A DNA stretch of 64,000 nucleotides from an uncultured Poribacteria bacterium (lineage in GTDB: Bacteria; Poribacteria; WGA-4E; WGA-3G), in contig OX638351.1 in the NCBI GenBank assembly GCA_951813565.1, positions 4,384,001 through 4,448,000 of the forward strand. The letters are read 5' to 3'. Of this stretch, positions 36,001 through 45,000 are shown in pieces (position 1 is the first letter of the stretch; the number at the start of each line of letters is the position of its first letter). The position numbers are program-made.

Positions 36001-39000
36001 CAGCCAACCGTGTGCGACTACCTGCTTTGGAAGTGGCAAGTTAACAGCCATCAACATTGCGGGCCAGATCAGTGCATGAAAACGGGTAATGTCCTTTGCC
36101 ATCATGTGGACATTGGCGGGCCAAAAGGTGTGGTACCGCTCATTGTCGGTCTCATAACCGAGTGCTGTCATATAGTTCATCAACGCTTCGATCCAGACAT
36201 AGACGATATGCTCAGGATCAAACGGTAAAGAGATACCCCATGAGACGGAGGAACGAGATATGCTTATATCCTCTAATCCAGAATCGAGTACGCTCAAGAG
36301 TTCATTGCGCCTACTTTCGGGATAGATAAATAGTGGGTTTTCGTGGATGTGCTTGAGTAAACGGTCTTGATATTTTGATAGTCTAAAGAAGTAATTCTCT
36401 TCCTCAATCCATTCTAAAGGCAACTTGTGGATAGGACAGATTTTTTCGTCTGTTAACTCCTTTTCAGGAACGAATCGCTCACACGGTCGGCAATAGTAGC
36501 CCTCATAGGGACCTTTGTAAATATCTCCGCTGTCGTAGAGGGCAGTAAGAAATTTCTTAGCACCGCGCTTATGCATGTCGCTTGTGGTGCGTAGAAAGAT
36601 GTCGTGCGAGATGTTCAGTCGTCTCCAAAGTTTGGTAAATATGGGTGTCATCTTATCGCAATACACTTGCGGGTCAAGACCTGCGTTCTCAGCGGCTTTA
36701 TGGACGTTTGCGCCGTGCTCATCAACACCAGTGAGGAAGAAGACCTCATCTCCTTTGATGCGGTGATAGCGTGCCAAGACATCAGAAACGATGGTGGTAT
36801 AGGCGTGCCCTGCGTGTGGTTCACCGTTAACGTAGTAGATGGGTGTAGTAATGTAAAATGTGCTCATTAGTATTTCTTTTGTTGAATCCCGTTTAGGTTC
36901 GGATCGCTGTTTGTAGTATGAGTTGGACTATTTGGGGACGCAATCAGCTTGTCATCAAACAATTCAAATTCTATCCTAACGGGGCTTGTTTGTCAAGGGC
37001 TTTTGAACGAGGAACAGGGTTATTTAGTTTTCGGTTTTTCTGCTATATTTTTTCACATTTCTATAAACTATCTGTCCGTCGGGTAGAGTTTGCGAAACCC
37101 ATAAATCAACGCTATGAATGCCTTTTGGCGGAATACGCTTTTGGTATTCCGCATGATTCAGCCAAATCAACGCTGAATACGCGTCCGGTATTCAGCGGAT
37201 GTCAATTTAAGGAATATTATCCGTTTTTTGGATATGTATAGCCCCAGAGGGGCGAAAGGTGTCCAGAACAATCGGAACACCCATTCACAAAGCCCCAGGA
37301 ATCAACGCCAAATGCGCTTGGCAGAATGCGCTTTTGGCATTCTGCATGATTTGTCGGGGGCGACAGGTGTCCATTAGATGTGGTTGTCGGACACCTTTCG
37401 CACCGCTGGGGCTGTGCACCCATTACAAATAAACACCGTTTGCTCATACTGTGCACTAAATTGACACCTATGGGTAGAGCGTGCTACACCTGACAGGATA
37501 TAAACGTGTCGGGTGTAGCACGCTCTACCCGACCTACGAAATAAACTATACCACGCCATCTCAGTAATTCGGAGAGTTTAGCGGTAATTCTATTCTGGAA
37601 CAACTGAACACAGATTTCTACACACCATTTTCCGGAACCCAATCCGCTGTGGCTTCAGCAAATTCCTTAGAAAGCTCCTCAGAAATAGTCTGTTCAAGTA
37701 GTTCAATCAGGTCCTCTCGGAATTTTACCCAGTCATCACCGCGGCGAGTAAAACGGTGCATATCCTCAATTTCAACAAACATTGTGTCCTGCGGTTCAGA
37801 CATTGATTCTAAATATCGTTTGACTTGCATTTTTCACCTCATTAATAATTTCCGTTAACTCATACCAGATTAACTTGATTCCAATCTATCGGTGCGGTGA
37901 ATCAACGCCAAATAAGCGTTTGGCGGGAACGACATAGCACTATACACATTTCGCCCCGCTGGGGCTCAAAAAAGCTTCTTAACCGTTTTCTATACACATT
38001 TCGCCCCGCTGGGGCTCAACACAACTACAAGCGCGGACTCATTTCCTTAAATTGACTTCTATGGTGTGGTGAATCAACGCCAAATAAGTGTTTGGTATTT
38101 GTTGGGAAACCGCACCTACCACCCGAAAAATAAGATAATTTCCGTTAATTTGATATTACTTATCAATTTTTATGATGCTTGCATCCATTCGTGAATTTCC
38201 CAATCTGTTTCAAGTGCTTTCTTGCGTAGTGCTTTGCTTGGATTGACAGCAATTGGATTCCCCACGGCATCCAACATAGGCAGATCAGATTGGCTATCAC
38301 TATAAGCATAGCAATCATCAAGTGGAACATTAGCTTGCTCAGCAAACTTTTTCAACGCAATTGCTTTTTGCTCTCCGATAAGCGGTTCAGTTGTCAGTTC
38401 ACCTATAAACTTTCCGCTCTGTTCTGCAAGTTCAGCGGCTAAAACAGAATCCACACCGAAATATGCTGCAATCGGCTGGACAATAAAGTCAAGCGAACCC
38501 GTCAGTAGGACAACATGGTGTCCTTGTTCTTTATGCGCCTCTATTTGCGAAATAGCTTCAGGAAATATCTTCTGACGAAGGTAATTCTCAAACATATCAG
38601 TTGCTGACGCCTTTACCGCTGTAGCATCCATGCCACGATAATTCCGATAGAAAACCTGATTAAATCTTTCCCTGCTAATCCGATCAAGAATTAGGTAGTA
38701 TATAATTTTTGGAAGAAAACCGATAGTCCAGAAGAATTTTTGAATAGAAGACAGCGAGGCGGTCCGCAGCCAGATGTAGCAATGTGCAATAGTCGAACTC
38801 AGCAACGTGCCATCTACATCAAAAAAGGCGATAGCTTTTTTCTGCATCGATTCCATTCTAAATATCCTAACCGAGTGTTTCTCTGAGTTCGGCAACACGG
38901 TTTTCAAGTTCAGTCAAAAATTCCTGATATATTTCTGAATTCTCCGTGATGTCCGCTGGTTTTTGTGAAACGTCAAAGAGAAGCGGTTTTCCAAAAACAA

Positions 39001-42000: not shown

Positions 42001-45000
42001 CTTCAATCCCACCATTTTTTGAGATGGCTTCGGCAGCAGCTAACATTGCATTCACTACGAAATCAACAGGTATAATATCTAAAATTATATCTGGGTCGGC
42101 GGGAAAATCGGGGATACGCCCCTTGGCGAAACCGACTATCAACGGTTCAGACATCCGATATTTACCGAGCCATCCGGGACGCGGTTCAGCAATGCTACTT
42201 TCAATAATTGATGGGCGAATGATGGCAGTAGGGAGATCACCGCGCAATTCCATGATTACCTGTTCAGCAAGGAACTTCATATAGGTATAAGTGTCGTTCC
42301 ATCCGCGGAAGCGAGCGTGTTTTAGGCCTGCTTCAACAAGACGCGCTTCAAGCCAATCTGCTTTAGCTTCCTCAGTAAGTGCTTCAAGATTTTTCCGACT
42401 CCTGCGTTTATCTGCTTTCAATTGTCGTTGTGCGGTCTGTTGAAACTGAGATACTTTTTCTGGTGTTTCTGCTTCATCTCGGATTGTTTGGTTTAGCGTG
42501 AGCAGATAGTCGATTTCTTCTGAGAGTGTTGGGGGAATTGTGTTTTCATTTTTATCGTTATGTTGTTGTGCGAGCTGTTCGTAAGGTAGATGGAGTTCTT
42601 CTGGAACGCGTCCCGGTTTATCACCACAGACATAAGCAGTTGAAACATGTAAAAAAACCGCGTTGGAACAACCTTTAGCAAACGTCACCACATGTTTTGC
42701 AGCAAGTGCATTACCTTTTAGTGACGCATCAAATGGAGGATCAAAATCAACGAGTCCTGCGATATTAATAAAAACGTCTACTTCATTTTGGAGGCGTTCA
42801 TAGTCAGCATCGCTAAAGCCGAGGCGTTCATCTGTTAGTTCGCCTTCAATAGGCGTAATTCTTTCTGTAACCCACGCCTCAAAATTGGCGCCGTGCAGCC
42901 GACGCAACGCATCAAATACATCAGAAGTTAATAGTTCTTTTTTAAAACGATCTTGTGCAGAAGTGACTTTACCATTCGACTCAACCCGGCTTCGGATAAG
43001 AAGGTAGATTTTTTGAACATCTGGCAGAGAAGTTAGAATTTTGGCAACCATCGGTTGCCCAAGGAAGGCAGTGCCGCCTGTAATCAGTAATACCTTCCCA
43101 CGAAAAAAATCGGTTATTGACATAATTTCCTTTGCCTAATTCAGTATATAGTTCTCACCGATAGGACACTACAACGAGCCTGCCGGATTTACGTAAGTCT
43201 TGGTCAGTCACATCAAATAATTATTTGAAGGGTATCAAATTCAGATAAGTTGTACTTTAACATATACGACAATAAAAGTCAAGAGTATTGTACCCAGAGG
43301 GTGTGTAAAGTTTTTGTAGAAATCCGCACAACTCCTATTGTAGGGGCGAGTCTCCGGGGAATGCCAAAAGGCATTCGGACCCGGTGAATGACTAAAGACG
43401 AATGCGCCAAATCAACGGTATGAATGCCTGCTGGCATTCCCCGTATGGCATTCGCCATGGTTCATACCGTTGATTTCTTGATTTGGTGCCTGCCCGTTGC
43501 ATGGCACGTCCTGCGCAGTGGCGGGGCACCAAATCAACGGCATGAATGCCTTATGGCATTCCCCGGGACCCCGCCCATAGGCGTCAATTTAAGAACACAA
43601 TTACCAGATTGCCTCTTGTGGGAGGGCTTTATAAGCCCGATTTATATGTATTTATCGGGGTTGAAAACCCGCCAAATGCCAAAAAGCGCATTTGGCGTTG
43701 ATTTGGCAGCATGCCACACGCGCATGCTGCGTTGATTTGGACAAATGCCAAAAGCAGAATCAACGCCGAGCGCGCGTATGGCACTCGTCGCATTTGGCGT
43801 TGATTTGGCAGCATGCCGGACGCGCATGCTGCGTTGATTCGCTCCCACAAGAGGGTATATCCTTAAATTGACGGCTATGGGGCACCAAATCAACGGTATG
43901 AATGCCTTATGGCATTCCCCGGGACCCCGCTCTACAGTGGAAAACGCCGCGTAATCATTGCAAATTGAACCTATGTAACCCAAATATTTACACACGGTTT
44001 AGTGAAAAGAGATTTGACAAATACTTCGCAGGTGATTATAATAGCACGATATATTTTAGAAATCTGTCTTGTAAAATGCATCTTGGTAGCGATATTTAAC
44101 CAATTCAAACACATAGCAATCTCAAGGACATGTGCGTTTATGTTAGCAGAACAAAAATTAGAGTTTCTAAAGAAAACTGAACTTTTTGCAGAACTCTCGA
44201 AAGCGGATTTAAAATCAATTAGTGATATCGTACAAGAGGTGGTTTACCCAGCAGATCATACCCTTTTTGAGGAAGGGGATGAGGGCGATTCACTTTATCT
44301 GCTTGTTGACGGAGAAATTAGCATCATAAAAGCAGAGACTGAAGTCTTATCTTTTAATGAGGAGGGGTATTGTTTTGGTGAAGTTGCCCTGATTGACGAT
44401 AAACCGAGAAGTGCAACGATTAAAACGACTACCTCAACCTGTCTCCTGCGAATCACACGGAACGATTTTTATCAAGCAATGGCGCGAGAACCGCTGATTG
44501 GCAGAGGTATGTTTCGGGTACTGAATAATAAAATTCGCCATGATCTTGAAATTCAGATGAGTGCGATTCGAAAGGAGATCGCACAAGAGGAGTCGATGCG
44601 TCTTGCCGCTGAAGTCCAACAATCAATCTTGCCAAACGAAGAGGTTGCGCATCCCTGTTTAACCTCCGCTGGATATTGCCAACCGACAAACAGTGTTGGT
44701 GGTGATTATTATGATTATCTTTATCTGCCAGACAATCGAGTTGGGATATTTATCGGTGATGTAATGGGGCATGGGTTTCATTCCGCGATGGTCGCTGCGA
44801 TGACAAAAAGCGGCATACAAACGCAAATCCGTTTTGACGCTTCAGTGCCTGAGGTGATGATGGCTGTGAAACGGGTTACTGAGGAAGATGCACAAACTTT
44901 TATCTATATGACATGCTGTTATGTCATTATCCATCAGGATAATCGGCTTGAGTTTGCTAATGCGGGGCATCCAGCAATGCTTCTTTTTCGGACGCACAGT

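Follow-up and report, generated by a model that had tools for sequence, protein, structure and literature searches.

Bacterial phospholipid synthesis is taught to begin with PlsX/PlsY or PlsB. The window analysed here, a 64,000-nucleotide stretch from an uncultured Poribacteria bacterium, carries an elbD gene of the ether-lipid type, and neither of these entries was found in the genome around it. This raises the question of whether the ElbD route has become the place where membrane glycerolipids start. Below, G000 is the genome of the window, C1 is its contig, and other G numbers are comparison genomes; positions without a contig name count from the first base of the window.

The elbD-elbB locus

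The elbD gene (38867..43123, reverse strand) encodes a protein of 1418 aa that combines reductase, adenylation, carrier and acyltransferase domains, with the Pfam domains NAD_binding_4, Sterile, AMP-binding, PP-binding and Acyltransferase all scoring above cut-off. The FAR-like reductase part (aa 14-531; 41531..43084, reverse strand; PF07993 E 1.8e-60, PF03015 E 5.9e-14) is followed by the adenylation and carrier domains (aa 575-1174; 39602..41401, reverse strand; PF00501 E 1.1e-76, PF13193, PF00550) and the acyltransferase domain (aa 1223-1355; 39059..39457, reverse strand; PF01553 E 7e-23). The YxxxK, carrier serine and HX4D motifs are all intact. The acyltransferase domain clusters with its counterparts in other ElbD proteins, separate from PlsC, and is our candidate for the predicted enzyme of the first acylation, on DHAP or glycerol phosphate. 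The Poribacteria copies of the reductase part that were tested form a single clade (SH-aLRT 97).

Overlapping elbD is a gene for a HAD phosphatase of 245 aa (38170..38907, reverse strand; TIGR01490, 152.6 against a cut-off of 98.3), and a gene of this kind adjoins elbD in all 71 of 71 Poribacteria loci. The first-pass annotation had called it elbE, which is wrong; the HAD protein is ElbB in PMC9131029, and the gene is ElbB-like. A search of G000 with an HMM from 10 ElbE candidates gave no ortholog of ElbE, only SDRs of a generic kind (best E 2e-16, identity mostly 23-30%). The proposed Elb module is scattered over three sites in G000. Outside the window it includes an MDR dehydrogenase gene with elbC (C1:3878272-3881401) and a YegS/DAG-kinase gene (C1:4954502-4955413); elbC itself (C1:3879833-3881401), a homolog of the Myxococcota and Blastocatellia ElbC, is unlinked to elbD.

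Absence of the canonical entry enzymes

The loss of the canonical enzymes from G000, described in the first-pass annotation, held up. In place of plsX, fabH directly follows rpmF (C1:1922590-1923862), and this junction is unbroken in contigs of all four public runs, from two studies, one run of which may be the source of the assembly. An assembly artefact can be ruled out: the loss recurs in 145 genomes, and the four runs cross the junction without a break. PlsX, PlsY and GpsA gave neither a Pfam match nor a match to HMMs built from kin, with best E-values over all six-frame ORFs of 0.34, 0.23 and 0.0017. A PlsY candidate from tblastn (C1:524510-525508) proved false and was gone with a rebuilt PlsY HMM. 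PlsB is absent as well, ElbD being the only one of four PF01553 matches that is PlsB-sized. The fourth of these genes (C1:2868457-2869113) has crtW-, cruF- and cruG-like carotenoid genes as neighbours and was set aside, and two PF03279 acyltransferases were rejected as substitutes because they are equally present in PlsX/Y genomes. In G001, G008 and G013 the PF01553 proteins are PlsC and the ElbD domain only. PlsC and a CdsA homolog are retained in G000 as had been claimed, both scoring below NCBIfam cut-offs. The gene set includes FAS II, ElbD, ElbB, the MDR dehydrogenase, ElbC, the YegS/DAG-kinase homolog, PlsC, CdsA and a PgsA-like protein, and searches for PlsX, PlsY, PlsB, GpsA and AGPS found none of them.

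Distribution of the loss

Of 151 Poribacteria genomes, just 6 carry PlsX and PlsY. Among the 145 that lack them, 143 have the ElbD-type reductase, which is in none of the six; the two PlsX/Y-less genomes without it are 88-90% complete, and both have ElbC. The mutual exclusion previously proposed for these genes fits the Poribacteria counts, but it fails as a general rule: among the matches listed, 38 of 50 reductase carriers outside the phylum retain PlsX, PlsY or PlsB, these 50 being no fair sample (two of three scans gave mostly unrelated ligases, and 3 of 53 chosen loci were left out). Given this co-occurrence, ElbD permits the loss and does not force it.

The reported lack of PlsX and PlsY throughout class WGA-4E was a sampling effect. 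Three of 148 same-class genomes (G045, G139 and G135) retain both, without the reductase, so the loss falls inside the class and does not follow its boundary. Where plsX has been lost it is cleanly gone from yceD-rpmF-[plsX]-fabH, and G045, G135 and G004 retain it there. GpsA is indeed absent from G000, but it does not track the loss, since it is still present in 27 of the 145 genomes without PlsX/Y; in genus g9 it is retained in 20 of 20. The loss in Poribacteria was probably one event, which is favoured by five-taxon trees (82, 63 and 79) and the reductase tree (97), while the GGGPS tree gave no clear answer as to whether group f5 belongs with the order of G000. It is reasonably likely that gain of the Elb module and loss of plsX and plsY go back to a common ancestor of this order and one neighbouring Poribacteria group, and that the module supplies the first glycerolipid chain.

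In Latescibacterota, where phylum-wide counts cover the reductase and PlsY and where PlsX and PlsB were searched in G153 only, 116 of 140 genomes have the reductase without PlsY, 20 have PlsY without the reductase, one has both and three have neither. Many PF03015 matches in this phylum are stand-alone FARs and not ElbD. Two genomes, G248 and G266, carry a FAR-acyltransferase-AGPS-SDR operon that runs divergently from a plsX-less yceD-rpmF-fabH cluster, and in G205 and G225 the same FAR and acyltransferase are joined with HAD-MDR-ElbC in place of AGPS-SDR. No acyltransferase was found next to the FAR in G283, G290, G291 and G295. G153 has no gene scoring as PlsC, so one acylation may be done there by a protein of the g04546 type, an unassigned acyltransferase of G000, or by a 234-aa acyltransferase. 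In Blastocatellia, among the matches listed, none of the 6 genomes in one ElbD clade has PlsX, PlsY or the PlsB domain, and the sister clade keeps PlsX/Y in 11 of 11. At least three bacterial groups seem to have made the swap to an ether entry independently of one another.

There are exceptions to this pattern. G327 has neither PlsY nor the reductase, and its ElbC homolog lies in a differing, PKS-like context; G216 yielded none of PlsY, FAR, ElbC and AGPS, and AGPS is present in G302. The control genomes of Bacteroides and Corynebacterium gave no PlsY, no PlsB-domain match and no reductase. Both make ester phospholipids, so the absence of canonical genes does not by itself imply ethers.

The ether-forming step

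PlsY-less genomes have either AGPS with an SDR, or ElbC with MDR and HAD, and a candidate ether-forming enzyme is present in nearly all of those tested. The query used for AGPS has a match to the peroxisomal enzyme at E 2e-147. Orthologs were found in 16 of the 17 ElbC-less genomes tested (one of which, G222, keeps PlsY) and in none of six with ElbC. The best match in G000 has about 25% identity (E 5e-25, compared with E below 1e-200 for orthologs elsewhere), and no ortholog of the accompanying SDR was found there. This complementarity suggests that ElbC fills the gap at ether formation; M. xanthus carries both, so the two are not always mutually exclusive.

ElbC, a LarA-like nickel-pincer enzyme, may itself make the ether bond, a proposal that we judge a little less likely than not. 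The G000 protein is 33-37% identical to Myxococcota and Blastocatellia copies (34-37% in the comparison over about 500 aa) and reaches 511 bits on NF052592, under the family cut-off of 740. Its predicted model (pLDDT 89.7) has a TM of 0.80 to PDB 9q3k. Of the catalytic His residues it retains one, together with the cofactor Lys and the nickel His motif, and H114, K189, H204 and H205 are invariant in 44 sequences. The second catalytic His for racemisation is missing, with no His at the matching columns. LarB and LarE of G000 score above cut-off; LarC was not found in a search by motifs only.

A proposed ether entry and its rivals

The core idea of the first-pass annotation, that the ElbD ether route is the glycerolipid entry, is strengthened on gene content by the recurrence of the pattern in Latescibacterota and one Blastocatellia clade. 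This bacterium and its relatives probably begin phospholipid synthesis through the known ether-lipid gene set. We consider it likely that the Elb module is the entry into glycerolipids, and only slightly favour the further step that the membranes are mostly sn-1 ether. In the proposed route, ElbD would load a fatty acid and reduce it to the aldehyde or alcohol, and its acyltransferase would acylate DHAP, with no need for GpsA. ElbC, MDR and HAD would stand in for AGPS and SDR to give 1-O-alkylglycerol or its phosphate, from which a kinase and PlsC could make 1-O-alkyl-2-acyl phosphatidate, the substrate of CdsA and PgsA. The G3P for head groups could come from glycerol kinase or glycerophosphodiesterase. 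In its fullest form, most Poribacteria, most Latescibacterota and one Blastocatellia clade would have independently dropped G3P acylation for an essential ether route to 1-O-alkyl-2-acyl membranes, with AGPS or a nickel-pincer ElbC (hidden-redox) forming the ether bond; taken as a whole this is rather unlikely.

Deletion of elbD is reported to block ether lipids in M. xanthus (PMC9131029, PMC13012113). For the purified M. xanthus protein, PMC9131029 gives no acyltransferase activity and no detected fatty alcohol. That result and the GpsA of the 27 PlsX/Y-less genomes count against our best explanation.

The module could instead be an entry mainly through acyl-DHAP, with the ElbD acyltransferase and MDR leading to ester lyso-phosphatidate and ethers making up only a share. 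This accounts equally well for the loss of PlsX, PlsY and GpsA, and M. xanthus ethers are minor, about 10% for plasmalogen (PMC9131029). An ester-only route, however, needs no reductase, ElbC or AGPS, and the retention of the reductase in 143 of 145 and 116 of 119 PlsY-less genomes, almost always with ElbC or AGPS, counts against it; we judge it improbable. Somewhat less probable still is a G3P acyltransferase not yet recognised, be it PlsC, g04546 or a new family, that makes ester lipids beside an accessory Elb cluster. Mycobacterial PlsM acylates G3P directly (PMC10593935), the two controls manage without PlsY and the PlsB domain, GpsA is kept throughout genus g9, and g04546 occurs in 38 of 45 PlsX/Y-less Poribacteria and in none of the six PlsX/Y-bearing ones. 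As the general substitute once suspected, g04546 is nevertheless too patchy: it is lacking in the closed PlsX/Y-less genome G027, in six other such Poribacteria and in 13 of 19 PlsY-less Latescibacterota, it occurs in 2 of 5 PlsY-bearing Latescibacterota, and across phyla the copy nearest to that of G000 is the one in G153. This explanation also leaves the tracking of loss and reductase in two phyla unaccounted for.

Two other sources of lipid are both very improbable. A symbiont could obtain lyso-lipids or diacylglycerol from its sponge host and complete them by means of the kinase, PlsC and CdsA, and glycerol kinase, glycerophosphodiesterase, a FadD-like ligase and the YegS kinase are encoded. 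The genomes, however, are 3.6-9 Mb with complete FAS II, the reductase is almost always retained, and the same loss is seen in MAGs of Blastocatellia, which are not known to be sponge symbionts. Archaeal-type GGGP/DGGGP lipids could also have become a main membrane component. The GGGPS of G000 passes TIGR01769 (221.5 against 161.55 bits), a DGGGPS-like gene lies two genes upstream (211/209 bits on NF009523/NF009521, cut-offs 269/296), and the Cloacimonetes pair yields archaeal-like lipids in E. coli (PMC7852524). But GGGPS is present in all six PlsX/Y-bearing Poribacteria, with DGGGPS close by in G002 and G135, and 19 of 20 PlsX/Y-less genomes of genus g9, many of them closed and 97-99% complete, do not have it. 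The pair is thus ancestral and predates the loss, which refutes the earlier claim of a second, general replacement route. G000 also lacks a G1PDH-level match (PF13685 best E 3e-14, against 1e-33 in G045, the top two being Fe-ADH and DHQ synthase), and it retains FAS II, PlsC and lipid A acyltransferases.

Should the ether entry through the Elb module be correct, an ether-first start that arose repeatedly would add a third way into phospholipids. Sponges contain C14-C18 monoalkyl glycerol ethers (bioRxiv 10.64898/2026.06.23.733905), and likely producers of these abundant short-chain alkyl ethers would be named. How ElbD leads to ethers without AGPS has been a standing question since 2014, for which the ElbC/AGPS pattern offers one specific candidate; if ElbC does form the bond, it would be the sought ether synthase and a new reaction class in the LarA family. 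PlsX/Y-less Blastocatellia may provide a culturable model for essentiality.

Comparison with known systems

The peroxisomal pathway (FAR, GNPAT, AGPS and alkyl-DHAP reductase) shares the DHAP entry and the lack of G3P acylation. In eukaryotes it is a branch alongside GPAT and not the sole entry. The Latescibacterota FAR-acyltransferase-AGPS-SDR operon resembles this peroxisomal set, whereas G000 lacks AGPS and an ortholog of its SDR.

With the M. xanthus elbA-E operon (Lorenzen 2014, as described in PMC9131029 and PMC13012113), G000 shares the four-domain ElbD, the ElbB-type HAD gene beside it and a homolog of ElbC. It differs in having no ElbE ortholog, in using an MDR dehydrogenase and YegS kinase instead, and in its three sites. 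PlsX, PlsY, PlsB and AGPS are all missing from G000, while 23 of 25 Myxococcota-like carriers, among the matches listed, keep PlsY, PlsX or PlsB. ElbC resembles LarA homolog groups 14-16 (NF052592; PMC7583248) and the single-histidine LarA-like enzymes (PDB 9q3k; PMC12611868). For three LarAH groups, Table S1 of PMC7583248 names acyltransferase, HAD, MDR, reductase and acyl-CoA ligase genes as neighbours; the paper's main text never uses the word lipid, and LarAH14 showed none of seven tested activities. The FCB GGGPS/DGGGPS pair (PMC7852524) is co-located without G1PDH, as are GGGPS and the putative DGGGPS of G000, but Cloacimonetes keep ester acyltransferases, and in Poribacteria the pair is ancestral, with one genus able to do without it.

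A further close precedent is the set of elb-like clusters of sponge symbionts (bioRxiv 10.64898/2026.06.23.733905), in which elbD-elbB in Poribacteria was already reported, along with split elbD forms and DAG kinases that adjoin part of the clusters. Some MAGs of Poribacteria and Latescibacterota have elbD together with agps in that work. Its main text makes no mention of plsX/plsY loss or ElbC/AGPS complementarity, and it gives 1-O-alkyl glycerolipids as without record for this phylum. That work frames the clusters as specialised metabolism, unlike the reading given here, in which they would be the entry to the membrane.

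Standard entry genes in the genome

The gene for ElbD (1418 aa; window 38867-43123, minus strand), a protein that combines a reductase, an adenylation, a carrier and an acyltransferase domain, is directly followed by a HAD phosphatase gene, and judged by sequence the pair is ElbD and ElbB. The first-pass annotation had called the neighbor elbE, which is a mislabel because the available passages of PMC9131029 use ElbB for the HAD and reserve ElbE for an NAD-dependent epimerase; an HMM from 10 ElbE candidates matched only generic SDRs in this genome (a single 5.43-Mb contig, 95% complete). 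Of 71 loci with ElbD relatives at 67-87% identity, 69 are labelled Candidatus Poribacteria and 2 uncultured bacterium. Short palindromic repeats lie on either side of the pair (window 43620-43850 and 37160-37350), the right-hand one being REP-element-like and matching about 311 separate 500-bp genome bins. A low-GC block (window 46937-57417, plus strand) is a likely restriction-modification island with a C5 methyltransferase, HSP90-like ATPase, HTH genes, an N4/N6 methyltransferase and a type III restriction subunit.

The reported absence of PlsX, PlsY and GpsA was borne out, as neither Pfam searches nor HMMs made from proteins of related genomes detected any of the three in any frame. The plsX gene sits between yceD and fabH in three compared genomes (G045, G135 and G004), and ours has the same order without it, a junction spanned by contigs of 4/4 runs from 2 studies. 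Similarly, plsY comes after der in G135 and G004, where our genome has a different gene. Glycerol kinase was above cut-off in 5/5 genomes tested, and a glycerophosphodiester phosphodiesterase (PF03009; window 26368-27090, minus strand) might supply G3P here, where GpsA is missing. PF01553 matches four proteins: PlsC, ElbD through its acyltransferase domain, the 407-aa g04546 and a member of a carotenoid cluster (L017:3906-12996, C1:2865905-2874995); this acyltransferase among crtW (above cut-off), cruF-like and cruG-like genes suggests acylated carotenoid glycosides as the product.

Distribution of the loss

PlsX and PlsY are confined to the same 6 of 151 Poribacteria genomes, and the reductase domain occurs in 143 of the 145 others and in none of the six. 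The loss and its tracking with the reductase thus hold across the phylum, but the class-wide extent claimed earlier does not: three of the six belong to the genome's own class, and therefore the boundary lies within it, around its own order and family f5. The six Poribacteria reductases tested form one group (SH-aLRT 97); three five-taxon trees join f5 to the order weakly (support 82, 63 and 79), and its placement is not settled in the GGGPS tree. We counted the Poribacteria loss as one event. GpsA is absent in 115/115 genomes of f1, f2 and f5, and since 25/26 f3 and 2/4 f4 genomes keep it, its loss is a separate one.

The mutual exclusivity of reductase and PlsX/PlsY, also claimed earlier, does not extend to ElbD carriers generally, since most of 50 outside carriers (of 53, chosen among the matches listed, completeness values not given) keep PlsY (31), PlsX (28) or the PlsB domain (17). 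Six of the 12 with none form one Blastocatellia clade, whose 11-genome sister clade keeps PlsX/Y. Among 140 Latescibacterota, scored on PlsY and reductase (PlsX and PlsB were searched in G153 only), 116 have the reductase without PlsY, 20 the reverse, 1 both and 3 neither. Because related genomes are not independent, we claim the pattern for three lineages, not hundreds of cases. On a Dehalococcoidia chromosome (G154; three PlsY matches, no PlsX), a single operon (L191) encodes reductase, acyltransferase, HAD, MDR, ElbC and kinase but no adenylation domain, and a complete Sorangium genome (G191, L335) has PlsY, with PlsX and the PlsB C-domain not matched.

Genes accompanying the reductase

Among 16 Latescibacterota reductase loci, 4 encode ElbD, and in 9 a stand-alone FAR precedes a protein of 660 aa, X; among those read, FAR has no acyltransferase alongside in G283, G290, G291 and G295. 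Protein X has no Pfam match and an HX4D-type motif, the atlas points to PF01553 at 0.89, and in Foldseek the six top matches of its model, weak even at best (E 1.6e-3), are to chains of PlsC, tafazzin-like proteins and GPAT; it has a helical N-terminal part and probably an acyltransferase C-terminal domain. After FAR-X, 7 genomes carry AGPS (the query matches peroxisomal alkyl-DHAP synthase at E 1.8e-147), with an SDR adjoining wherever reading frames were resolvable, and 2 carry HAD-MDR-ElbC-kinase, so that the two modules look interchangeable. In G248 (L444:4408-10976) and G266 (L448:7315-14502) the peroxisome-like FAR-X-AGPS-SDR operon is divergent from a yceD-rpmF-fabH fatty-acid cluster without plsX. 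The genes elbD-HAD-MDR-elbC-kinase form a single operon in G220 and G104 and occupy three sites in our genome.

ElbC orthologs occur in 38/42 PlsX/Y-less Poribacteria (all except family f4), 0/6 with PlsX/Y and 4/30 Latescibacterota. AGPS, expected in advance in ElbC-less genomes and then searched for, was found in 9/10 (G216 is the exception), beside FAR in 7 further ones, of which G222 keeps PlsY, and in 0/6 with ElbC, a tally that leaves out seven ElbC-less, PlsY-less genomes. At L187 and L388 (G153), L449 and L450 (Latescibacterota) elbD or FAR precedes an lgt-like gene and has a YegS kinase and a putative Mce/ABC lipid-transport-like cluster at its flanks, as labelled from the starts of the ORFs.

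Proposed route and alternatives

ElbD would yield a fatty aldehyde or alcohol and acyl-DHAP, from which ElbC, MDR and HAD, or elsewhere AGPS and SDR, would form the 1-O-alkyl glycerol unit; kinase, PlsC, CdsA and PgsA-like enzymes would complete a 1-O-alkyl-2-acyl phospholipid. We infer this whole route from gene presence, absence and order. Against it, the available passages of PMC9131029 report no acyltransferase activity for purified ElbD.

An unrecognised acyltransferase could instead acylate G3P, as PlsM is able to do according to the passages available of PMC10593935, and two control bacteria without PlsY, PlsB domain or reductase favor this and count against the Elb route. The first-pass candidate, g04546, has a suggestive distribution in Poribacteria (38/45 tested without PlsX/Y, 0/6 with), but as a general substitute it is ruled out by its absence from the closed G027, 13/19 PlsY-less Latescibacterota and 5/5 other PlsX/Y-less genomes; 2/5 PlsY-bearing Latescibacterota have it. 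PlsC and the ElbD domain are the sole PF01553 acyltransferases of G001, G008 and G013 (89-95% complete). The single chromosome of G153 has no gene scoring as PlsC, so g04546 is still a local candidate there.

The GGGP/DGGGP pathway, proposed earlier as a second replacement, is not one by gene content: GGGPS (E below 1e-29) occurs in 121/151 Poribacteria including all 6 with PlsX/Y, and in just 1 of 20 g9 genomes, all without PlsX/Y and some closed assemblies of 97-99%. G1PDH was looked for in our genome and not found. Its DGGGPS-like and GGGPS genes (L113:958-13267, C1:3664957-3677266) enclose an RNA methyltransferase, with lpxD, skp-like, bamA-like, grpE and dnaJ as neighbors; G002 and G135 also have a DGGGPS-like gene near GGGPS. 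A second LarA homolog besides ElbC, an ordinary one of 430 aa, is widespread (L523, C1:3684916-3686226; L495, G004:C153) and in G004 directly adjoins GGGPS. The observation is confirmed with corrections, and the gene-content pattern supports the Elb ether route, unlike the GGGP route, as the likely glycerolipid entry.

Comparison with known systems

The ElbC model has a LarA fold (pLDDT 89.7, TM 0.80 to 9q3k) and places near LarAH14-16; the cofactor lysine and nickel histidine are retained and the second catalytic histidine is missing. According to the available passages of PMC7583248, a different hydride-mediated reaction is possible for such groups, and Table S1 of that paper shows the same neighbor genes without comment. 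The genome has larB and larE; larC was not found by motif. ElbD in Poribacteria was already known (preprint 10.64898/2026.06.23.733905), and the literature within reach, which excludes most subscription titles, held no link between plsX/plsY loss and the ether pathway or between ElbC and ether formation. The GGGPS/DGGGPS pair of FCB bacteria (PMC7852524, whose available passages leave Poribacteria unmentioned) resembles the pair found here. The Elb route would be a variant of a known ether pathway, with a specific, testable lead on its missing enzyme.
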